In this document: piece by piece, positions 6 to 10,010 of the stretch
Layout: every line of letters starts with the position of its first letter
Position numbering within the stretch: the stretch's first letter is position 1
Source of the DNA: a virus
Lineage: Monodnaviria > Loebvirae > Hofneiviricota > Faserviricetes > Tubulavirales > Inoviridae
Reading direction: 5' to 3' (one strand)
Length of the DNA stretch: 10,010 nt
Virus record (IMG/VR): IMGVR_UViG_2721755647_000001
Notes under the pieces: model-generated
Database searches by the model: none
What the model saw: only the letters and a program-made list of their open reading frames with translations
Told to the model about the DNA's origin: nothing
Program-made: the position numbers and the translations under genes

Positions 6-146
6 TTACTTTCCTTGTGTTGGTTTAGTAGTGGATTGTTGAGCTTTTTCTAAAAGCCTTTTTGCTTTAGATGTGTCCAAACCATCTTGGGCAAAGCCTT
101 GTTGCTTATCATTCTGTTTTTGTTCACTTTTTTTTGGCGTATTCAT
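6..146 (-). CDS. Hypothetical small Lys/Gln-rich protein (about 46 aa, MNTPKKSEQKQNDKQQGF...) in the non-repeated left flank
   Basis: In-frame ATG at 146-144 on the - strand within the 6..320 ORF; weak RBS; sits behind a leader homologous to the one upstream of the 140-aa membrane-protein gene in copy 2. Low-complexity sequence, so it may not be a real gene. Confidence 0.2.
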   Translation of the reverse strand: MNTPKKSEQKQNDKQQGFAQDGLDTSKAKRLLEKAQQSTTKPTQGK

Positions 147-215
147 CAGTATATACTTTGACTCGTTTTGTTTATCTCGATGACTTACTTTTTGTTTAAG
201 TTTTGCACAAACTAG

Positions 216-261
216 AACGTGCAGTGTTGGTAATACTGCACGTTTGTACCATTCGTGGTAC
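216..261 (-). terminator. Twin stem-loops: AACGTGCAGT-9nt-ACTGCACGTT (216-244) and GTACCA-ttcg-TGGTAC (246-261); a terminator or attenuator after the RHH gene, or possibly (-) strand-origin-like hairpins
   Basis: Perfect inverted repeats read directly from the sequence, immediately after the stop codon (262-264) of the - strand RHH ORF; a U-rich tract follows on the - strand in copy 2. Confidence 0.4.
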
Positions 262-444
262 TTAATCCTTTTGTTTGGCAGACATGAGATCTTCTGCTGC
301 ATCTTTAGAGTAGTTATCAATCAGATAACCTAAAATCTCTGTCCATGTAATTGTTTTTCCTAGTTTTACACTGGCATTTATAGCCAGTCGTTCTAGTTTC
401 ATTTTTCTTTCTTCCGTCACGTTATAAGTCGTGCGCTTTGCCAT
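262..444 (-). CDS. Ribbon-helix-helix (CopG/Arc/MetJ-like) putative transcriptional repressor, 60 aa
   Basis: MAKRTTYNVTEERKMKLERLAINASVKLGKTITWTEILGYLIDNY has the beta-strand then two helices pattern of CopG (recalled RLTITLSESVLENLEKMAREMGLSKSAMISVALENY); divergent from gII; present in both repeat copies. RBS is weak. Confidence 0.5.
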   Translation of the reverse strand: MAKRTTYNVTEERKMKLERLAINASVKLGKTITWTEILGYLIDNYSKDAAEDLMSAKQKD

Positions 445-571
445 TTTTTACGCTCGTTCAATGCAATATTTGAAGTGAGTATACATGCTCATGAACTCAT
501 ATCATCCAAGCCTCTTGAACTCACTAGCTCACTGATGTAATGTTAAAACACTAATGAACTACTGAACTCAT
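445..571. promoter_or_regulatory. Divergent control region between the RHH gene and gII, with four TGAACTCA/TGAACTAC repeats, a CTCACT direct repeat and a candidate gII promoter (TTGAAC-17nt-TAATGT, 515-543); possible (+) origin or operator
   Basis: Repeats at 492-499, 516-523, 555-562 and 563-570 read from the sequence; -35/-10-like hexamers with 17-nt spacing. The canonical M13 nick motif was not found by eye. Confidence 0.4.
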
Positions 572-613
572 GTGTTAGTAAGTCGTCATTTTTGCAATTT
601 TGAGGATTTATTC

Positions 614-1666
614 GTGATCGATTGGCTTACCGGGATTTTCCCTTGCACACACAAACCGCTTCCGGCGGGGAGTGTTGTCAGCGTTGATGCTGACGGTGCA
701 ATTGAGTGGGAAACCGTTAAGCGACTGACTGTTCGCGGCTCGCATGAAGCAACGATGAAAGTACGATCGATAGGATCTAATGGCGAAGGTAAAGCGACAC
801 ATTTGTACATTGATGGTAATCCGTCCAAGTTTTTGCAGGGGCATTCTGTTGTTGGGTCGGATGATATACAAGGGCTCATGTTGACGGTCTATGCCAGGAT
901 TTTATCCTTATTGAATATTCCTCATGATTTAGCGTCTTATAAAGCTGTTATAGCAGGTCAGTATAAAATTTCACGTGTTGACATTAATTACATGTATTCA
1001 TTATCTACGCTAGAAAATGTCAGATCATGGCTTTATGCCGCCGAATTTAAAGCTAAAACACGCCATGGTCGCGCATGTGGGAAAGGCGGTACAGTTTATT
1101 TAGGTAAAAACTCCCGTCGATGGAGTCTGAAATTTTATTCAAAATATGATGAACACGTTTCGGGTAAAAAAGGGCACCAGATAGCCGAAGATTTTGTACG
1201 AGCCGGGTTACTGGACTGGACGAAAGATAAATTACGTATTGAATTAACATTAAGAACAACTGAGCTTATTGATTTAAATTTAACGCTTGGCGCTAACTGG
1301 AATATGAAAACACCACGTCAATTATTCTCTGAATATGTAGGGAGAATAGAAATGAATCAGAATGCTATTTTAAGTGATGAAAAAATAACGAAACTGCCAA
1401 GAAAAATACAGTCAACTTATTTACTTTGGAAACAAGGGGCTAACATGAAAGAAATGTTACCTCATAACACTTTTTATCGCCATAGAAGAGAATTGCTTTC
1501 GTTCGGTATCGATATTAATTTCTATTGTGATTCACCAGACTCTAATAACGTTGTTCCGCTAATAAGAACGCTGGAAGCCAAGCCAGTGGAAATCCCCTTA
1601 TGGATTTATGAGAAAGGTTTTATTTTCGATTACAACCGTATTTCGCACGCCAGTAGCTGGCATTAA
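614..1666 (+). CDS. gII: Gene II replication initiation (nicking-closing) protein; likely GTG start at 614 preceded by GAGGA (the ORF track begins at an upstream GTG at 572)
   Basis: From 614 the product begins (M)IDWL..., like M13 pII MIDML...; internal NPSKFLQGHSVVGSDD resembles M13 pII SPAKVLQGHNVFGTTD; first gene of the Ff order. Confidence 0.8.
   Translation: MIDWLTGIFPCTHKPLPAGSVVSVDADGAIEWETVKRLTVRGSHEATMKVRSIGSNGEGKATHLYIDGNPSKFLQGHSVVGSDDIQGLMLTVYARILSLLNIPHDLASYKAVIAGQYKISRVDINYMYSLSTLENVRSWLYAAEFKAKTRHGRACGKGGTVYLGKNSRRWSLKFYSKYDEHVSGKKGHQIAEDFVRAGLLDWTKDKLRIELTLRTTELIDLNLTLGANWNMKTPRQLFSEYVGRIEMNQNAILSDEKITKLPRKIQSTYLLWKQGANMKEMLPHNTFYRHRRELLSFGIDINFYCDSPDSNNVVPLIRTLEAKPVEIPLWIYEKGFIFDYNRISHASSWH
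1352..1666 (+). CDS. gX: Gene X protein, an in-frame internal restart within gII (104 aa)
   Basis: In-frame ATG at 1352 preceded by GGAG at 7-nt spacing; analogous to M13 pX (the C-terminal third of pII). An alternative in-frame ATG at 1304 has no SD. Confidence 0.45.
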   Translation: MNQNAILSDEKITKLPRKIQSTYLLWKQGANMKEMLPHNTFYRHRRELLSFGIDINFYCDSPDSNNVVPLIRTLEAKPVEIPLWIYEKGFIFDYNRISHASSWH

Positions 1667-2487: not shown

Positions 2488-3738
2488 ATGAAAAGGAAAA
2501 TATTAATTCTTTCCGCTGTCCTCATTTCTCCTTTTTCACATGCTGAGTCATGGGAAAGCATTACTAAATCCACTTATCAAAGCTCTGCCTACGCTGAAAG
2601 TAAGCAAATAACCAATCAGGATGGCTCTAAGTCAACGGTTTACTATATTGATGCTGCTATGCAGGCCTCCGCTTGTCAGGGTGCTAAATCCAGTGCTCAG
2701 AGTGTATTTACTCAGGTTAAACCAACTTATGAGGGTATCTGGCCTGATTCTGAATTCCGTCTTGTTTTTACTGGTGATTGTACTTACAGCGATTCACCAG
2801 GGCAGAAGGATAAATATTGGTCTTTAACGGCTTATATTGTTGGTGATATTCAGCGTTCTGTTCCTGATGAAAAACCTACTGACCCGACACCAGAAGAAAT
2901 TTGTGAAGCGAAGCCGCCAGAAGAAGGTGTATTTAATAATGTTGATTCATATGATGGTGGTCGTTATATCTACTATAACGGCTGTGAATATGAGGCTACT
3001 GGTGTCATTGTTTGTCAGGGTGATGGTACTGTTTGCGCTGCAACATGGAAGCCTACAGGTACTGTAGCTGACCCCTCTGATAAACCCTCAACCCCCCAAA
3101 ATGGTGGTGGTGAGTCTGGCGGTGGTGAGTCTGGCGGTGGTGAGTCCGGTGGCGGTAGTTCTGGCGGTGGTGAGTCCGGTGGCGGTAGTTCTGGCGGTGG
3201 CTTTAGTGGTTCCAGTCTTTCTAAAGGTGATATTCAGTCTGCTATCGAAGGTGCTTCACCCAAAATAGCCAGCGATATTCATGATAAATTAACGGAGAAA
3301 GACACTTCATCAGATGATAAAAAAAATGCCGATGAACAAACTAGGAATAATATAAATCGTCTTGACGATTCCATTAACAATCTTACGCGGGGGGCTGGCC
3401 GTTTTGCTGACCCTTCAGGTGGTGATTCTCGTTATGGAAAGGGCGACTCTGAATTAGATGGCGCTTCTACTTTGGCTGATTCTGAATTGGGAATTGAAAA
3501 GGATTCTCACGGTGCTTTATGGGAAGCATTTTTAAATAAAGGTGCTATGCTGCCTAATTTACCCAATGGTAACGGCTGCTCTGATTTTATTATTTTTCCC
3601 GGAGAGGTTTATCAGATTGATATTGGTTGCGATAAATTACTGACTATTAAAGATGTTCTTTCATGGGTTTTTTATTGCCTTACGTTCTGGTATGTCTTTA
3701 CTTCTTTAACTTCATTGCTTCGCAAAGGGGGTGAGTGA
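2488..3738 (+). CDS. gIII: Gene III adsorption protein (416 aa) with signal peptide, Gly-rich linker and C-terminal membrane anchor; true start 2488, not the ORF-track 2344
   Basis: [19 protein letters not shown] signal; [10 protein letters not shown] repeats; hydrophobic C-terminus like M13 pIII; starts just after the gVIII terminator. Confidence 0.85.
3103..3204 (+). repeat. Tandem 15-bp (GGxGGxGAGTCy) repeats encoding the pIII glycine-rich linker, including a perfect 30-bp duplication (3133-3162 = 3163-3192)
   Basis: Read directly from the sequence; encodes [33 protein letters not shown]. Confidence 0.85.
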
Positions 3739-4079: not shown

Positions 4080-5174
4080 ATGGCGGTTCATGTAGTAACA
4101 GGCAAATTAGGCTCAGGCAAGACACTTGTTAGTGTTTCCAGAATACAGGAAAGACTTGCTAAGGGTTGTCCTGTTGCCACTAATCTTGATCTTAAATTGC
4201 ATAATATGCCTATGGTTGGGCGTTATGCGAAAAAAACGCGCGTTATTCGCATTCCTGACAAGCCTTCATTAAATGATTTACTTGCTATTGGTATTGGGAA
4301 TACATCTTACGATGAATCCCGTAATGGCCTCCTTGTACTTGATGAATGTGGTACTTGGTTTAATTCCCGCTCATGGGGTGATAAAGACAGACAACCTGTT
4401 ATTGACTGGTTTTTACATGCCAGAAAATTAGGCTGGGATATTATATTTTTGATTCAGGATATTTCGATAATGGATAAGCAAGCTCGTCTGGCGCTTGCTG
4501 AGCATGTTGTTTATTGTCGCCGTTCAGATAAATTAAACATTCCTTTTGTTGGCTCCATTATGAATTTGGTTTCAGGGGCGCGATTTTCTTTACCAAAGGT
4601 ACACTTTGGCATTGTCAAATATGGTGATAACGTTAATTCAATTACTGTTGATAAATGGATATACACCGGAAAATCATTATATTCCGCCTACAATACAAAA
4701 CAGGTTTTTACTGATAACTATCCGCATGGTGCTTATTCGCTTTTGCCACCATTTATCACGCACGGTCAATTTTCTGTTCACAGAGGATTTAATTATTATA
4801 TGCGCCTCACGAAAATTTATTTTCGCAAATCGAACCGTCTTATATTAATGCTTTCTTTTTTGGCGCTGGGGCTTGCGCTTGGTTTCTGGCTCCAGTCTGG
4901 AAAGAATGTTGATGAAATCTCCGCTATTAAATCTGCTTATGCTGAACAGGCGAGGGCGGTAACGCCTGATTCGTCCAGTGACTTACCCCGACTTTCTATT
5001 AATTCTTTTTCACAACTTGGCTTTGACGTTTCCGTTACGTTTGTTGATGCAAAAGGTACGAAATATCAGTATTTTGATTTGATTAAAGATGGTTATTCCG
5101 TTGATATTAAAGATGCCTGTCGTGTTGTTATTAGAAAAGGCCGTTATTTACAGACTGTTATCTGTCAGGAGTAA
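4080..5174 (+). CDS. gI: Gene I assembly ATPase (Zot-family, 364 aa) with Walker A GKLGSGKT
   Basis: MAVHVVTGKLGSGKTLVSV... closely matches recalled M13 pI MAVYFVTGKLGSGKTLVSV...; also LLVLDECGTWFN and DWFLHARKLGWDIIFL. Confidence 0.9.
   Translation: MAVHVVTGKLGSGKTLVSVSRIQERLAKGCPVATNLDLKLHNMPMVGRYAKKTRVIRIPDKPSLNDLLAIGIGNTSYDESRNGLLVLDECGTWFNSRSWGDKDRQPVIDWFLHARKLGWDIIFLIQDISIMDKQARLALAEHVVYCRRSDKLNIPFVGSIMNLVSGARFSLPKVHFGIVKYGDNVNSITVDKWIYTGKSLYSAYNTKQVFTDNYPHGAYSLLPPFITHGQFSVHRGFNYYMRLTKIYFRKSNRLILMLSFLALGLALGFWLQSGKNVDEISAIKSAYAEQARAVTPDSSSDLPRLSINSFSQLGFDVSVTFVDAKGTKYQYFDLIKDGYSVDIKDACRVVIRKGRYLQTVICQE
4800..5174 (+). CDS. gXI: Gene XI protein, an in-frame internal restart within gI (124 aa)
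   Basis: Internal Met gives MRLTKIYFRKSNRLILMLSFLALG, resembling M13 pXI MKLTKIYLKKFSRVL... Confidence 0.5.
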   Translation: MRLTKIYFRKSNRLILMLSFLALGLALGFWLQSGKNVDEISAIKSAYAEQARAVTPDSSSDLPRLSINSFSQLGFDVSVTFVDAKGTKYQYFDLIKDGYSVDIKDACRVVIRKGRYLQTVICQE

Positions 5175-5181
5175 TATTATT

Positions 5182-6447
5182 ATGCGCTCTGTTATTGTTG
5201 CTTTTTTATTTGCCTGTTCATTCTGCGTTTCTGCTGAAACTGTTAATTTAAACAATTCATCTGTTCGCTCATTTGTTCAGTGGTATTCTTCAAAAACTGG
5301 CAAGCCTGTTATTGTTAATCCTGATATTAAAGGAAACGTAACCGTATTTAATGCTGATGTTAATCCAACAAATATTGATGATTTCTTTAAGTCTGTTCTG
5401 AATGCTAACGGTTTTGTCATGCTTTCTGGCAATCCTGCGGTAGTCTCTTTGCCGTCTAAATTACCTTCACAGATGGTTTCGGATTCCGATGATTCTGATA
5501 ACCAGTCTTATGATACTTTTCCTTCTGAGCCATCTTACCAGCCAGTACCTGTGGCGCTTACGGTCAGAAATTTTAAGCTGACAAAAGTTAGATCGTCCGA
5601 TGTTCAGCAACTGATTAAAATTTATCTTGATTCTAATGGTGGTGGTAATGTCGTGGATTATCCAGGCAATAACTCGCTGATTGTTTCTGCGCCTGACGAG
5701 CTGCTGCCGGTTCTGTCCGATTTTATCAATTCTGTGGATGTTGCCCGCGATCAGGTTCTCATTCAGTCGCTGATGTTTGAAACCAGCTTGTCTGATGGCG
5801 TTGATTTATCGTTTGCGGCAGGTTCTGCATCCGGTCATAAGGTTGCGGGGGGCTTTAATACTTCTGCACTGGGTAGCGCTCTTTCTACGGCGGGCGGTTC
5901 TTTTGGTATTTTTGATGGTAACGTGTTGGCGCTGTCTCTGCGTGCTGTCCAGAGTAATTCACGCTCTAAGGTGATTTCAACGCCGCGTATTCTTACTCAG
6001 TCTGGTCAGACTGGTTACATTTCCGTAGGTAAGAATGTGCCGTTTATCACCGGAAAGGTAACGGGCGAATCTGCCGGGGTAAATAATCCGTTTCAGACTA
6101 TCGAGCGTCATGATGTTGGCGTTTCTCTCAAGGTAACGCCTGTTGTCATGGGTAACGGGCAACTAGTTCTGACTATCGACACTCGCGCTGATTCAATCAG
6201 CAATGATGATCAGGCATCCGATATTATTACTAATCAGCGCCAGATTCAGACGACAGTCCAGATTAAGGATGGTCAGACGTTGTTATTGGGGGGGCTTATC
6301 GATTCATCGTTTAGCAATGCTGAGCGTTCAGTTCCAGTTATAAGTAAAATTCCTCTTATAGGCTGGATTTTCAGTAGCAAGGCAGACAGCAATGAACAGC
6401 GTATTATGTATATTTTGCTTACAGCACATATCATTCGTCCACTTTGA
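5182..6447 (+). CDS. gIV: Gene IV secretin (outer-membrane export channel, 421 aa); true start 5182 (MRSVIVAFLF...), not the ORF-track 5089
   Basis: Signal peptide, then extended similarity to recalled M13 pIV (NNSSVRSFVQWYS vs NNSPLRDFVTWYS; VPFITGKVTGESAGVNNPFQTIER conserved); RBS AGGAG. Confidence 0.9.
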   Translation: MRSVIVAFLFACSFCVSAETVNLNNSSVRSFVQWYSSKTGKPVIVNPDIKGNVTVFNADVNPTNIDDFFKSVLNANGFVMLSGNPAVVSLPSKLPSQMVSDSDDSDNQSYDTFPSEPSYQPVPVALTVRNFKLTKVRSSDVQQLIKIYLDSNGGGNVVDYPGNNSLIVSAPDELLPVLSDFINSVDVARDQVLIQSLMFETSLSDGVDLSFAAGSASGHKVAGGFNTSALGSALSTAGGSFGIFDGNVLALSLRAVQSNSRSKVISTPRILTQSGQTGYISVGKNVPFITGKVTGESAGVNNPFQTIERHDVGVSLKVTPVVMGNGQLVLTIDTRADSISNDDQASDIITNQRQIQTTVQIKDGQTLLLGGLIDSSFSNAERSVPVISKIPLIGWIFSSKADSNEQRIMYILLTAHIIRPL

Positions 6448-6490
6448 TGGATAGCGGGTAGGTGCGTGAGCCCTGCTCGCTATCCATCAA
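6444..6490 (+). other. Long hairpin (13-bp perfect stem TTGATGGATAGCG / CGCTATCCATCAA with a structured interior) overlapping the gIV stop; packaging-signal-like and/or terminator
   Basis: Inverted repeat read directly; in Ff phages the packaging-signal hairpin lies immediately downstream of gIV. Confidence 0.55.
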
Positions 6491-6516
6491 ATGGACATTA
6501 TTGATTGGGGTAACTA

Positions 6517-6825
6517 ATGGATTCTTATGGGATTTTATCTGCTCTGGCAGAACGAACGATTACAGCGGAAGAAGCAAAAACAATGACACTTGCAGCCAGA
6601 AGTTCTTCGGCTCAGGTAAATGAAGCATCACTTGCTCTGTTACTGATTGATAATACTCTGGATGCGATCAAAGCAGCTGCCAGTGAAGGGAAAGGATACA
6701 CTTTACTTCCTTCTTATGAGATTTCTTTAAAAGCCATTGATTTAGCAGAAGAATTTTTAAGGAAACAATGCGGCTATGTTATTGATAACCAGAATGGCGT
6801 AAGGACGGTCTATTGGTTTATATGA
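6517..6825 (+). CDS. Hypothetical protein (102 aa), first cargo gene after the packaging hairpin
   Basis: ORF with a GGGG-containing RBS 6 nt upstream; no recognisable family; followed by a stem-loop. Confidence 0.45.
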   Translation: MDSYGILSALAERTITAEEAKTMTLAARSSSAQVNEASLALLLIDNTLDAIKAAASEGKGYTLLPSYEISLKAIDLAEEFLRKQCGYVIDNQNGVRTVYWFI

Positions 6826-6828
6826 TAA

Positions 6829-6869
6829 CCCCGGACAGTGACAAAACTTGCTTTTGTTAGTGTCCGGGG
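6829..6869 (+). terminator. Extended imperfect stem-loop (CCCCGGACA...TGTCCGGGG with inner ACAAAA/TTTTGT pairing) between the two + strand cargo genes; a T7 run lies about 22 nt downstream
   Basis: Read from the sequence; the spacing to the T-run is not typical of an intrinsic terminator, so it could be an attenuator or structured RNA. Confidence 0.3.
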
Positions 6870-6942
6870 TTGGCCAAGCCGAACAATTCTGTTTTTTTAG
6901 CGTTATTGCTGATTCGGCGCGGCAGCATTACGAGGAGATAAA

Positions 6943-7176
6943 ATGCAATTTTTCACATCCAGCGATACTGTAATGTTATGTGCGAAGACCTGCGATCGCT
7001 GTGGTCGCCATGCGAAGACGGTGGTAGATGACATTGAGTTCAATGAGTTTCTGTCTGTTAATCACTTAGCTGGATACGGTTCAATTTTTGGTGACAGTAA
7101 TCGCTTAAAACTGGATTTATGCCAACATTGCCTGAAAGACGTCCTGGGCCAGTGGATTACGGTCTGTGACCAATGA
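6943..7176 (+). CDS. Hypothetical Zn-ribbon protein (77 aa; Cys17-x2-Cys20 ... Cys60-x2-Cys63)
   Basis: Strong RBS GAGGAG 5 nt upstream; paired CxxC motifs; no family recognised. Confidence 0.55.
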   Translation: MQFFTSSDTVMLCAKTCDRCGRHAKTVVDDIEFNEFLSVNHLAGYGSIFGDSNRLKLDLCQHCLKDVLGQWITVCDQ

Positions 7177-7214: not shown

Positions 7215-7247
7215 GGTGCGCATAATGTACGACTCGTTATGTTGAAA
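7215..7247 (+). other. dif-like XerC/XerD recombination site, candidate attP of an integrative element exploiting Xer: perfect XerC arm GGTGCGCATAA, then TGTA, an atypical spacer, and a XerD-arm-like TTATGTTGAAA
   Basis: The first 15 nt (GGTGCGCATAATGTA) equal E. coli dif (GGTGCGCATAA-TGTATA-TTATGTTAAAT); the XerD-like arm matches 9 of 11 but is displaced 5 bp, giving an 11-bp rather than 6-bp central region. Confidence 0.55.
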
Positions 7248-7248
7248 A

Positions 7249-7285
7249 GGCCGCTGCGAAAATCGTATCCCGCAGCGGCCTCTTT
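7249..7285. terminator. Bidirectional rho-independent terminator (GGCCGCTGCG-12nt-CGCAGCGGCC) flanked by A-run and T-run, between the convergent cargo modules
   Basis: 10-bp GC-rich perfect stem; TCTTT downstream on +, TTTTC downstream on -; sits between the + ORF ending at 7176 and the - ORF ending at 7312. Confidence 0.7.
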
Positions 7286-7311
7286 AGCATAACGTCATTG
7301 TGCGAACCAAT

Positions 7312-7791
7312 TTATATAGAAATGAAAAACTCCTCTTCATTCCTTTTTTTATAATTGTCATCCCATATAAGTTTTATTCGGTATTTAGTTTTACTTCCAA
7401 AGCTTAGTCCCGCTAAAATTTCAATCCCATGTTGCGGGTGTAATACTTCATATGGAAATTTATCTTCTACATCATGCATGTAAAGATATTCATTGCCATC
7501 GTTATCAGGGAAATGAATTTCTATATTTTTAGCCTCAACTTTCCCTCTATTAAATATCTTGAGTCTATAGTTGTTTTTGGCTATTTTTACGAGGCGGGCA
7601 CCAAGCTCAGCCTTCATCTCATTAATTGCTGACTTTGTTTCTTTTTCTAGAAGCAACTTACGTAACCTGTCTTGCTCATCCTTTATAACCTTTTGTTCTC
7701 TATCACTTTTTCTCGACTTCACTTCTGATGATATGATAGTGTAAATCGATACTACAAGCGCAGCTAAAGCGATGGCATCACTCGTTGTCAT
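7312..7791 (-). CDS. Hypothetical membrane-anchored protein (159 aa): N-terminal TM helix, charged coiled-coil-like segment, C-terminal globular domain
   Basis: Start overlaps the stop of the upstream Zn-ribbon gene (TAATG), RBS AAGGA; hydrophobic AIALAALVVSIYTIISS then KSRKSDREQKVIKDEQDRLRKLLLEKE; about 30% GC by eye. Confidence 0.6.
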   Translation of the reverse strand: MTTSDAIALAALVVSIYTIISSEVKSRKSDREQKVIKDEQDRLRKLLLEKETKSAINEMKAELGARLVKIAKNNYRLKIFNRGKVEAKNIEIHFPDNDGNEYLYMHDVEDKFPYEVLHPQHGIEILAGLSFGSKTKYRIKLIWDDNYKKRNEEEFFISI

Positions 7792-8066
7792 TATTTAATC
7801 CTTATATTTTTACTTCCTTTAAATGCCTTTTTGAGCATATCATTAAACTGTTTTTGAATATCTTTTGTTAACTCTTCTTTTATCTCATCCACATGGGCGT
7901 CAATACTCACCCCGTTTTCTTGGATTAAATCATCATTAGTGAATTCTTTCCCGCAGCCTACACATCTGACGACTTCAGACTCTTCCTCGTGTTCCATCTC
8001 TGTATTTCCGCACACAGGACATAGCAGGGTGATATTTCTATTGTATTTCTCAGGATTCAGTTTCAT
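7791..8066 (-). CDS. Hypothetical Zn-ribbon protein (91 aa; CPVCG-x15-CVGCG) with an acidic/basic helical tail
   Basis: Good RBS GAGAGGAA; classic C-x2-C-x15-C-x2-C; translationally coupled to the downstream membrane-protein gene. Confidence 0.6.
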   Translation of the reverse strand: MKLNPEKYNRNITLLCPVCGNTEMEHEEESEVVRCVGCGKEFTNDDLIQENGVSIDAHVDEIKEELTKDIQKQFNDMLKKAFKGSKNIRIK

Positions 8067-8094
8067 ATATTTCCTCTCTTCTACGTTTTATTGA

Positions 8095-8517
8095 TTACCA
8101 GTAATATGAATTTCTTCTGTGCCACCAATAAAGCAGCCCGTATCCGATGATAAGAATTCCGAAAAACATCAACGACATTCCCCAGCCAGTTCCATACCAC
8201 GAAACCATATCATCGAAAACCAATCCACCCGTTTCACGTACTCCGGCAGCTTCCTTAAGGATTGGTTTGAATACCGGAATCAGAAGGGCAATCGCCAGTG
8301 GAGCACCCCAGCGAACAAGACCTGTTTCCATTTTGATCCCGAAAAAGATCCCCGCCCCGACAACAAGCAGCCAGACTATCAGGCCAGGCGCAGTTTCCAG
8401 TGCTGTTTGCCATTCAACATCGAAAGTTTTCATTAGCCAGGCAACAACTGCCAGACAGAAAGCAAATACGCCGACGACAACCAGTTCAACGCCGCTTGTT
8501 TCGTTGTTTCTACTCAT
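8095..8517 (-). CDS. Hypothetical integral membrane protein (140 aa, about 4 predicted TM helices)
   Basis: Four hydrophobic stretches of about 20 aa; Trp/Tyr-rich C-terminus; the antisense + ORFs are low-complexity artefacts; about 48% GC by eye, unlike its neighbours. Confidence 0.6.
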   Translation of the reverse strand: MSRNNETSGVELVVVGVFAFCLAVVAWLMKTFDVEWQTALETAPGLIVWLLVVGAGIFFGIKMETGLVRWGAPLAIALLIPVFKPILKEAAGVRETGGLVFDDMVSWYGTGWGMSLMFFGILIIGYGLLYWWHRRNSYYW

Positions 8518-8559
8518 CCTTTTGATCCTTTTTCACTGTTCAAAATTCGCACAATAAAG

Positions 8560-8605
8560 AACGTGCAGTGTTGGTAATACTGCACGTTTGTACCATTCGT
8601 GGTAC
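8560..8605 (-). terminator. Twin stem-loops, copy 2 (same as 216-261)
   Basis: Same sequence at +8344 offset; lies between the RHH gene and the 140-aa membrane-protein gene on the - strand. Confidence 0.4.
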
Positions 8606-8788
8606 TTAATCCTTTTGTTTGGCAGACATGAGATCTTCTGCTGCATCTTTAGAGTAGTTATCAATCAGATAACCTAAAATCTCTGTCCATGTAATTGTTT
8701 TTCCTAGTTTTACACTGGCATTTATAGCCAGTCGTTCTAGTTTCATTTTTCTTTCTTCCGTCACGTTATAAGTCGTGCGCTTTGCCAT
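8606..8788 (-). CDS. Ribbon-helix-helix putative repressor, copy 2
   Basis: Same 60-aa product as 262..444. Confidence 0.5.
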   Translation of the reverse strand: MAKRTTYNVTEERKMKLERLAINASVKLGKTITWTEILGYLIDNYSKDAAEDLMSAKQKD

Positions 8789-8915
8789 TTTTTACGCTCG
8801 TTCAATGCAATATTTGAAGTGAGTATACATGCTCATGAACTCATATCATCCAAGCCTCTTGAACTCACTAGCTCACTGATGTAATGTTAAAACACTAATG
8901 AACTACTGAACTCAT
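8789..8915. promoter_or_regulatory. Divergent control region with TGAACTCA repeats, copy 2
   Basis: Same as 445-571. Confidence 0.4.
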
Positions 8916-8957
8916 GTGTTAGTAAGTCGTCATTTTTGCAATTTTGAGGATTTATTC

Positions 8958-10010
8958 GTGATCGATTGGCTTACCGGGATTTTCCCTTGCACACACAAAC
9001 CGCTTCCGGCGGGGAGTGTTGTCAGCGTTGATGCTGACGGTGCAATTGAGTGGGAAACCGTTAAGCGACTGACTGTTCGCGGCTCGCATGAAGCAACGAT
9101 GAAAGTACGATCGATAGGATCTAATGGCGAAGGTAAAGCGACACATTTGTACATTGATGGTAATCCGTCCAAGTTTTTGCAGGGGCATTCTGTTGTTGGG
9201 TCGGATGATATACAAGGGCTCATGTTGACGGTCTATGCCAGGATTTTATCCTTATTGAATATTCCTCATGATTTAGCGTCTTATAAAGCTGTTATAGCAG
9301 GTCAGTATAAAATTTCACGTGTTGACATTAATTACATGTATTCATTATCTACGCTAGAAAATGTCAGATCATGGCTTTATGCCGCCGAATTTAAAGCTAA
9401 AACACGCCATGGTCGCGCATGTGGGAAAGGCGGTACAGTTTATTTAGGTAAAAACTCCCGTCGATGGAGTCTGAAATTTTATTCAAAATATGATGAACAC
9501 GTTTCGGGTAAAAAAGGGCACCAGATAGCCGAAGATTTTGTACGAGCCGGGTTACTGGACTGGACGAAAGATAAATTACGTATTGAATTAACATTAAGAA
9601 CAACTGAGCTTATTGATTTAAATTTAACGCTTGGCGCTAACTGGAATATGAAAACACCACGTCAATTATTCTCTGAATATGTAGGGAGAATAGAAATGAA
9701 TCAGAATGCTATTTTAAGTGATGAAAAAATAACGAAACTGCCAAGAAAAATACAGTCAACTTATTTACTTTGGAAACAAGGGGCTAACATGAAAGAAATG
9801 TTACCTCATAACACTTTTTATCGCCATAGAAGAGAATTGCTTTCGTTCGGTATCGATATTAATTTCTATTGTGATTCACCAGACTCTAATAACGTTGTTC
9901 CGCTAATAAGAACGCTGGAAGCCAAGCCAGTGGAAATCCCCTTATGGATTTATGAGAAAGGTTTTATTTTCGATTACAACCGTATTTCGCACGCCAGTAG
10001 CTGGCATTAA
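8958..10010 (+). CDS. gII: Gene II replication initiation protein, copy 2 (ORF track starts at 8916)
   Basis: Same product as the first-copy gII. Confidence 0.8.
   Translation: MIDWLTGIFPCTHKPLPAGSVVSVDADGAIEWETVKRLTVRGSHEATMKVRSIGSNGEGKATHLYIDGNPSKFLQGHSVVGSDDIQGLMLTVYARILSLLNIPHDLASYKAVIAGQYKISRVDINYMYSLSTLENVRSWLYAAEFKAKTRHGRACGKGGTVYLGKNSRRWSLKFYSKYDEHVSGKKGHQIAEDFVRAGLLDWTKDKLRIELTLRTTELIDLNLTLGANWNMKTPRQLFSEYVGRIEMNQNAILSDEKITKLPRKIQSTYLLWKQGANMKEMLPHNTFYRHRRELLSFGIDINFYCDSPDSNNVVPLIRTLEAKPVEIPLWIYEKGFIFDYNRISHASSWH
9696..10010 (+). CDS. gX: Gene X in-frame restart, copy 2
   Basis: Same as 1352..1666. Confidence 0.45.
   Translation: MNQNAILSDEKITKLPRKIQSTYLLWKQGANMKEMLPHNTFYRHRRELLSFGIDINFYCDSPDSNNVVPLIRTLEAKPVEIPLWIYEKGFIFDYNRISHASSWH

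Follow-up and report, generated by a model that had tools for sequence, protein, structure and literature searches.

The window, by which we mean the whole stretch of 10,010 nucleotides analyzed here, matches E. coli chromosomes over its whole length with 98 to 99.9% identity, and in strain 16843 the same sequence directly follows hipBA. Self-comparison showed that positions 214 to 1666 are duplicated exactly at 8558 to 10010, with a period of 8,344 bp, so that the window contains a complete prophage copy followed by the beginning of another. The genes are arranged as an RHH-like open reading frame (ORF), gII, gV, a gVII-like gene, gVIII, gIII, gVI, gI (Zot), gIV (secretin), and two small ORFs. 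This gene order, together with the tandem integration at dif and the variable ORFs found at both ends, matches the published description of CUS-1, a phage of E. coli O18:K1:H7, and Ypfφ, a phage of Yersinia pestis (PMC4266046; PMC7307601), the cores of which were reported to be 99% identical (PMC4266046). The window is an E. coli filamentous prophage of the CUS-1/Ypfφ type, in tandem at dif. Table 1 lists its relevant features.

Table 1 Features of the window and, where indicated, of locus L001
Feature	Position	Strand	Description
Hairpin pair following the RHH gene	216-244 and 246-261	.	Core/cargo boundary
60-aa RHH repressor-like gene, copy 1	262-444	-	ATG ORF; YPO2273/small RstR homologue; phrog_2503
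Inferred RHH gene promoter	478-505	-	-35 ATGATA (505-500), 16-nt spacer, -10 TATACT (483-478)
Operator O1 (predicted)	484-499	.	Two abutting units, CATGCTCA and TGAACTCA; within the spacer of the RHH gene promoter
Inferred gII promoter	515-543	+	-35 TTGAAC (515-520), 17-nt spacer, -10 TAATGT (538-543)
Operator O2 (predicted)	516-531	.	Two abutting units, TGAACTCA and CTAGCTCA; extends over the -35 box inferred for gII
Operator O3 (predicted)	555-578	.	Three abutting units, TGAACTAC, TGAACTCA, and TGTGTTAG; ca. +5 to +28 if gII is transcribed from its inferred promoter
gII replication initiator, presumed target of repression	614-1666	+	Phage_CRI (E value, 3.2e-70) and G2P_X_C (E value, 4.8e-29) in Pfam
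dif-like junction between the two prophage copies	7215-7248	+	GGTGCGCATAATGTACGACTCGTTATGTTGAAAA; same as the left end beside hipA
Cargo ORFs	7312-7791, 7791-8066, 8095-8517	-	One module
60-aa RHH repressor-like gene, copy 2	8606-8788	-	Sequence identical to copy 1
Operators O1 to O3, copy 2	8828-8922	.	First-copy coordinates + 8344
gII, copy 2	8958-10010	+	From the ORF list; exact repeat
dif sites in L001	11995-12030 and 28695-28724		Left end imperfect, right end perfect dif
Cargo in L001	12100-13221

Organization of the tandem prophage

The right end of the prophage is a canonical dif site, GGTGCGCATAATGTATATTATGTTAAAT, while imperfect dif sites with a long central region, made up of GGTGCGCATAA, an 11-nt spacer, and TTATGTTGAAA, are found at the left end and where the two copies meet. 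This agrees with Ypfφ, whose junction between copies was published as an imperfect dif site. The initial annotation had suggested a temperate, integrative lifestyle, and two tandem copies beside hipBA, with a canonical dif on the right and a dif-like hybrid both on the left and between copies, bear it out. Strong inverted repeats were also read from the sequence in the segment running from gIV to dif (6447-6516, 6826-6875, and 7249-7290): GATGGATAGCG...CGCTATCCATC, located just after gIV, is a candidate packaging signal or terminator, CCCCGGACA...TGTCCGGGG follows a 102-aa ORF, and GGCCGCTGCG...CGCAGCGGCC lies beside the dif-like site.

The tandem copies carry different cargo between the dif-like site and the RHH gene (1-213 versus 8345-8557), the core being otherwise identical. 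Cargo products are 159, 91, and 140 aa long in one copy and 230, 91, and 46 aa in the other, and other E. coli strains have at this spot a PD-(D/E)XK nuclease, STM4504 family. Comparison of the cargo with PADLOC and NCBIfam yielded nothing beyond the name of a zinc-ribbon family, ECs_2282, and a weak candidate match to PDC-S64. Since all cargo genes are codirectional with the RHH gene, they may be expressed in the lysogen. That the RHH protein serves as an antitoxin or regulator of this same-strand downstream cargo, with no role at gII, is nevertheless extremely improbable: the downstream gene encodes 46 aa in one copy and 140 aa in the other within a single window and is different again in each of the other loci, whereas neither the RHH gene nor its sites change; hairpins and a gap of 40 to 90 nt separate the RHH gene from the cargo; and no cargo protein matches a known toxin family.

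The predicted DNA folding energy of the hairpin region is -18.4 kcal/mol, with a z score of -4.96 for the strong first hairpin, whose stem is 13 bp long. The boundary between core and cargo is found at 193 to 213, just past the hairpins (the equivalent region of copy 2 is 8537-8605), with the 20 to 30 nt past it still partly similar between the two copies. In phage If1 and the loci L006, L008, and L010, which have the other gII type, the same spot is occupied by a different conserved element, CGCGAAGCGGTTCGGGG...CCCGAAC / CGCGAAGCGGTTCGGGGTTCTGTGACACCCGAAC. The hairpin region may be a plus-strand origin that covaries with gII, as ig-1 of CTXφ does, as well as a hot spot of module exchange, or it may simply be the terminator of the RHH gene.

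A family of small proteins encoded opposite the replication gene

The 60-aa ORF that the initial annotation had placed divergent from gII was confirmed as an ATG ORF on the minus strand. In comparisons with its counterparts in L006 and L008 over 44 codons, pS was ca. 0.73, which is near saturation, with pN of 0.04 to 0.06 and dN/dS of 0.013 to 0.023. The conservation with a synonymous-site pattern that had been set as a check on this ORF was thus strong (dN/dS of 0.01 to 0.02 versus relatives), and the 60-aa ORF is a real gene. We also considered a 104-aa TTG ORF (6-320, minus strand), which shares DNA with the 3' end of the RHH gene but is read in a different frame, and discarded it as an overextended call. 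This ORF matches phrog_6875 (E value, 4.8e-67), and its first 36 codons, the N-terminal third, belong to the conserved core. The corresponding frame of copy 2, however, meets a stop after 43 aa, and PGAP annotates no more than the final 46 aa. The long version probably reflects overextended gene calling and was taken into the PHROG family as such.

The phrog_2503 profile covers residues 1 to 60 of the 60-aa protein (E value, 3.6e-34), which by full-length homology belongs to the inovirus small repressor family (phrog_2503, the small RstR alleles, and YPO2273). Close relatives numbered 72 across Enterobacterales, a search of genome contigs with an alignment of close homologues returned only 4 near-identical loci, and an exhaustive search with clustering at 50% gave 65 family representatives at E values of ≤1e-3. 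In all complete inovirus loci examined except L017, the gene diverges from the Rep gene; L017 lies at a prophage end, and no Rep gene was called adjoining the homologue there. Divergence with a repeat-bearing spacer in between was found in the window, L003, L004, L006 to L010, L015, L016, L018, and L019. The Rep genes opposite family members themselves span several families (Phage_CRI, G2P_X_C only, and REP_ORF2-G2P). Hence, phrog_2503 is an inovirus-wide family, divergent from the replication gene in almost every locus examined.

The monomer model of the 60-aa protein (pLDDT, 79) consists of a coil at residues 1 to 10, an N-terminal segment that is extended in the model, and two helices at residues 11 to 28 and 34 to 59. 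The turn between them reads G-K-T, as in Arc and Mnt. Within the family there are natural tandem duplications (P0077, P0088, P0122, and P0132), of which P0077 (37% identity to the 60-aa protein; E value, 3.9e-12) was modeled with a pLDDT of 82 and a pTM of 0.73 as β-α-α twice, with strands at 14 to 20 and 76 to 82 and helices at 21 to 38, 44 to 65, 83 to 100, and 106 to 128. The two models together provide the β-strand/helix/helix succession in ca. 45 residues that characterizes RHH proteins, and we also accepted an intertwined antiparallel β-ribbon with a fold like that of solved RHH dimers as probably present.

Sequence comparisons gave no significant match to a curated RHH profile. Weak matches to ParG (RHH) in Pfam appeared in 6 of 46 family members (best E value, 0.019), the 60-aa protein had no match in Pfam, NCBIfam, or PADLOC, a profile search of PDB sequences retrieved only a chance match to uS17, and alignment of the family profile with Arc and Mnt by hhalign was negative. 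Foldseek of the monomer model against the PDB had no significant hit, the best RHH entry being Reg576 (E value, 7); a lone RHH chain is a poor query. Such failures of profile matching are common in short RHH proteins, so they lower, but do not exclude, RHH membership. As the initial annotation had expected, an RHH fold is predicted for the family, an assignment drawn from the model of the 37%-identical relative. With MetJ, Arc, CopG, and ω, the 60-aa protein would share the β-α-α topology and the G-x-S/T turn, although there is no detectable sequence similarity to any of them and both its loop (by one residue) and its helix 2 are longer.

A gene at this position has precedents. In Ypfφ, YPO2273 was described as "homologous to RstR," located at the rstR position, and possibly regulating replication, and resident Ypfφ gives partial protection against superinfection (PMC4266046). 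Like the window gene, YPO2273 diverges from the replication gene (YPO2274), and from the published description, we infer that the two genes are equivalent. In the literature searched, no structure or mechanism is reported for YPO2273; the predicted RHH fold, the operator units built on TGAACTCA, and their overlap with the promoters (see below) are products of the present analysis. A further homologue is present in the classical coliphage If1 (L002, NC_001954), where an intact 67-aa protein with 58.5% identity to the 60-aa protein is encoded at 5119-5322 on the minus strand; it is unannotated, and the record labels 4834-6039 as "major intergenic region." The notion in the initial annotation that a repressor is unusual for an Ff-like phage was therefore overstated, given that the Ypfφ review already includes an RstR homologue and that If1 carries one as well. 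In If1, an IS-like insertion separates the RHH homologue from gII; a 147-aa ORF (5388-5831, minus strand) and "ORF348" (6031-7086, plus strand) look by eye like TnpA and TnpB of an IS200/IS605-family element, and the gII frame appears split (7316-7537 and 7461-8432).

The family also reaches the cholera phages and their relatives. A 64-aa "RstR-like" protein of CTXφ/pre-CTXφ (non-O1/non-O139 type) is 41% identical to the 60-aa protein (E value, 4e-14), and the "RstR-like" proteins of Vibrio phages VAI1 and VAI2 are homologues too. The small RstR alleles (rstR-6 and the 64-aa RstR-like) diverge from rstA and thus hold the same position as the window gene, but they have other β-strand residues and repeats (ATTGCATGC in pre-CTX) and a Vibrio host, and their phages use RstA as the rep gene and lack a secretin gene, unlike the window phage. 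The rstR6 allele measures 192 bp, and its ends, derived from primers, are MKKKYTSLRV... and ...KTDLKR. By blastn against phage records, the forward primer had a 93.5% match to a family member in Vibrio cyclitrophicus phages, while an exact search of viral contigs with the primer found no match. Judging by the primer sequences and the 93.5% match, rstR6 appears to be a member of the family. In a lux assay, RstR6 lowered the activity of its own ig-2 promoter from 2.18e5 to 1.94e4, ca. 11-fold (PMC11509585, Table 2); most of the other seven ig-2 promoters tested were unrepressed, those of ET, class, ZJ, and ZHJ among them (PMC11509585). With RstR6, the RHH class would have one member with experimental support as a repressor.

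The canonical RstR of El Tor and classical CTXφ does the same job at the same position, with operators in the spacer and allele-specific immunity. However, RstR-ET is a 112-aa HTH_3/XRE protein (Pfam E value, 4.9e-16) in which BLASTP detected no similarity to the 60-aa protein (E value, 3.1), so that the latter falls outside the canonical RstR family and is only its functional analogue. As the small RstR is homologous to a predicted RHH protein and RstR-ET is an HTH protein, "RstR" would be a positional name applied to two unrelated folds.

Octamer repeats in the spacer and the two inferred promoters

The start of gII is most likely GTG 614 and not GTG 572, because it is preceded by an SD-like GAGGA, Phage_CRI aligns from residue 1, and PGAP agrees. 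The spacer between the divergent genes is therefore 169 bp (445-613) rather than the 127 bp given in the initial annotation, whose four repeats, in contrast, are all there: exact copies of TGAACTCA at 492-499, 516-523, and 563-570 and TGAACTAC at 555-562. Over the whole window and both strands, TGAACTCA has 7 exact copies against 0.32 expected, a number reached in none of 200 shuffles, although 6 of the 7 are the same three sites counted twice, owing to the recurrence of 214-1666 at 8558-10010. By our own estimate, made before any correction for the post hoc choice of motif, the chance of three copies in the 127-bp stretch is ca. 1e-8. The repeat unit can be stretched to ca. 12 nt (CTNNTGAACTCA), and each site is a run of two or three abutting 8-bp units. 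The unit, TGA-NN-TCA, is itself near-palindromic. The CTCACT direct repeat reported earlier does exist (520-525 and 528-533, 8 bp apart), but as a by-product of the abutting TGAACTCA and CTAGCTCA and not as a separate element.

Both promoters in Table 1 are candidates read from the spacer. That of the RHH gene has 9 of 12 consensus matches in a promoter scan, and the position of its -10 is kept in L006, L008, and L010. The putative gII promoter resembles the consensus only weakly and is absent from the output of the scan; TTGAAC followed by the 17-nt spacer is also found in L006 (-10 TATCTT), L008 (TAGTAT), and L010 (TATATT). In CTXφ, PrstA is also under LexA control. By contrast, no LexA box (CTGT-N8-ACAG, allowing one mismatch) was found in the window spacer, and the total for the window was at chance level, so a CTXφ-like SOS input is not supported.

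The most informative comparison is with L006, L008, and L010, whose RHH proteins are ca. 60 to 86% identical to that of the window and keep the β-strand TYN[VI]T, while their gII products have no significant similarity to the window gII. These loci have 3 or 4 exact TGAACTCA/TGAGTTCA octamers within ca. 90 bp upstream of the RHH start and almost none elsewhere in 6 kb. The position and motif of O1 are kept in all three, the window and L006 share octamer spacings of 24 and 47 bp, and in L008 and L010, the octamers are flipped in orientation but fixed in position; the counterpart of O2 in L008 forms a palindrome of 16 bp without mismatch, TGAACTCATGAGTTCA. Around the octamers, the spacer sequence has drifted to a mean column identity of 59%. 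The homologue in L010 (Providencia sp. PROV175, 3001-3240) departs fully after residue ca. 40 (…TYKLIIIQKNYQK…) and runs to 79 aa, which looks like a frameshifted copy with the upstream octamers intact.

The motif is also present in two metagenomic loci that encode more distant TYN proteins (L015 and L019). When the β-strand is different, a different repeat is found in the equivalent place: TGAGTAAC with TVSVTE in L016, TTTTTTAGTTAAATAG with TTFNIK in L018, and ATTGCATGC with TTVRINE in pre-CTX.

These patterns bear on whether the TGAACTCA repeats could instead be origin iterons bound by pII, as in the core of the f1 origin, with the small ORF being incidental. Ff origins do contain short pII-binding repeats, the octamers are a short distance upstream of gII, and this phage has no origin mapped elsewhere. 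Yet, the same octamers at the same positions accompany a gII without significant similarity in L006, L008, and L010, the repeats switch when the RHH β-strand switches, and the part of the locus that does vary with the gII type is the hairpin segment past the 3' end of the RHH gene. Moreover, the CTXφ origin is located in ig-1, beyond rstR, and not in ig-2. A comparison by eye of the spacer and the 190-262 region with the plus-strand origin of IKe found nothing convincing. We consider the origin reading highly improbable. Of the two possibilities left side by side by the initial annotation, operators and/or pII-binding repeats, the first is favored, since the repeats are kept with unrelated gII genes and change with the β-strand, covarying with the small protein and not with gII. 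The octamers thus fit putative operators of the small protein, at the level of sequence. Some of the motif conservation could reflect linkage, since the spacer is coinherited with the repressor gene, although the sequence around the motif has diverged.

The arrangement of the putative operators recalls known RHH systems. MetJ binds tandem metboxes, which the abutting 8-bp units resemble, and the tolerance of the octamers to either orientation is reminiscent of the heptads of ω. As a point of difference, no corepressor is known for the 60-aa protein.

Proposed control of replication and immunity

We consider it probable that the 60-aa protein is an RHH repressor acting at the octamer operators in the immunity and replication control of a CUS-1/Ypfφ-type prophage. 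In this model, the N-terminal β-strands (KRTTYNVTE) of a dimer would enter the major groove at the near-palindromic 8-bp units TGA(AC/GT)TCA, which are arranged head to tail with an 8-bp period in three clusters, much as MetJ does on its tandem sites. Occupancy of O2 would cover the -35 of the gII promoter and that of O3 the early transcribed region, while a repressor bound at O1 would sit between the -35 and -10 of its own divergent promoter. As the sites overlap both inferred promoters, binding should repress gII and autoregulate the repressor gene. Occupied operators would silence gII together with the gII-gV-structural operon downstream, so that the phage stays quiet whether integrated or episomal, and the repressor would make the lysogen resistant to phages with the same operators while limiting its own synthesis.

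The same binding could serve a different end, the protein being a copy number or homeostasis brake on gII during chronic infection rather than an on/off lysogeny switch. CopG, which brakes repB of the rolling-circle plasmid pMV158, is the model for this, as it likewise controls a rolling-circle Rep gene, and gII is an HUH rolling-circle initiator like RepB. No dif-like arm was found in If1, and this nonintegrating phage keeps an intact homologue, so the protein is not tied to integration and, by analogy with CopG and RepB, may serve as a gII brake in episomal, chronic infection. The spacer also lacks a LexA box or other evident induction input, and Ypfφ is an unstable episome in most Y. pestis lineages (PMC4266046). 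Against a brake alone, the window phage is integrated in tandem at dif, and homologous small RstR alleles occur in CTXφ-type prophages, with RstR alleles giving allele-specific immunity. We regard the brake reading as rather unlikely, and the roles of brake and switch are not exclusive.

A role of this gene as an RstR-like regulator had already been proposed in the Ypfφ literature. What the present analysis adds to that repressor is the assignment of the predicted RHH fold, the operator unit and its layout on the two inferred promoters, the case against the octamers being origin iterons, the connection with the small RstR alleles, and the unannotated homologue in If1. A broader proposal, which we put forward tentatively and at somewhat less than even probability, is that phrog_2503 comprises pan-inovirus RHH immunity repressors that act, in a MetJ-like architecture, on rows of adjoining 8-bp units, their specificity being determined by three or four residues of the β-strand. 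As part of this proposal, the intact copy in the "major intergenic region" of If1 suggests that even those Ff-like phages considered purely productive may be repressor controlled, with a low-expression state and homoimmunity.

The general picture of temperate filamentous phages is unchanged by these findings. CUS-1 and Ypfφ have been tied to the host fitness of extraintestinal E. coli and the plague bacillus (PMC4266046). The predicted fold explains why the "RstR" alleles of cholera phages form two unrelated structural classes, HTH and RHH, and the operator code, in which β-strand variants correspond to octamer variants, could predict mutual immunity among filamentous prophages.
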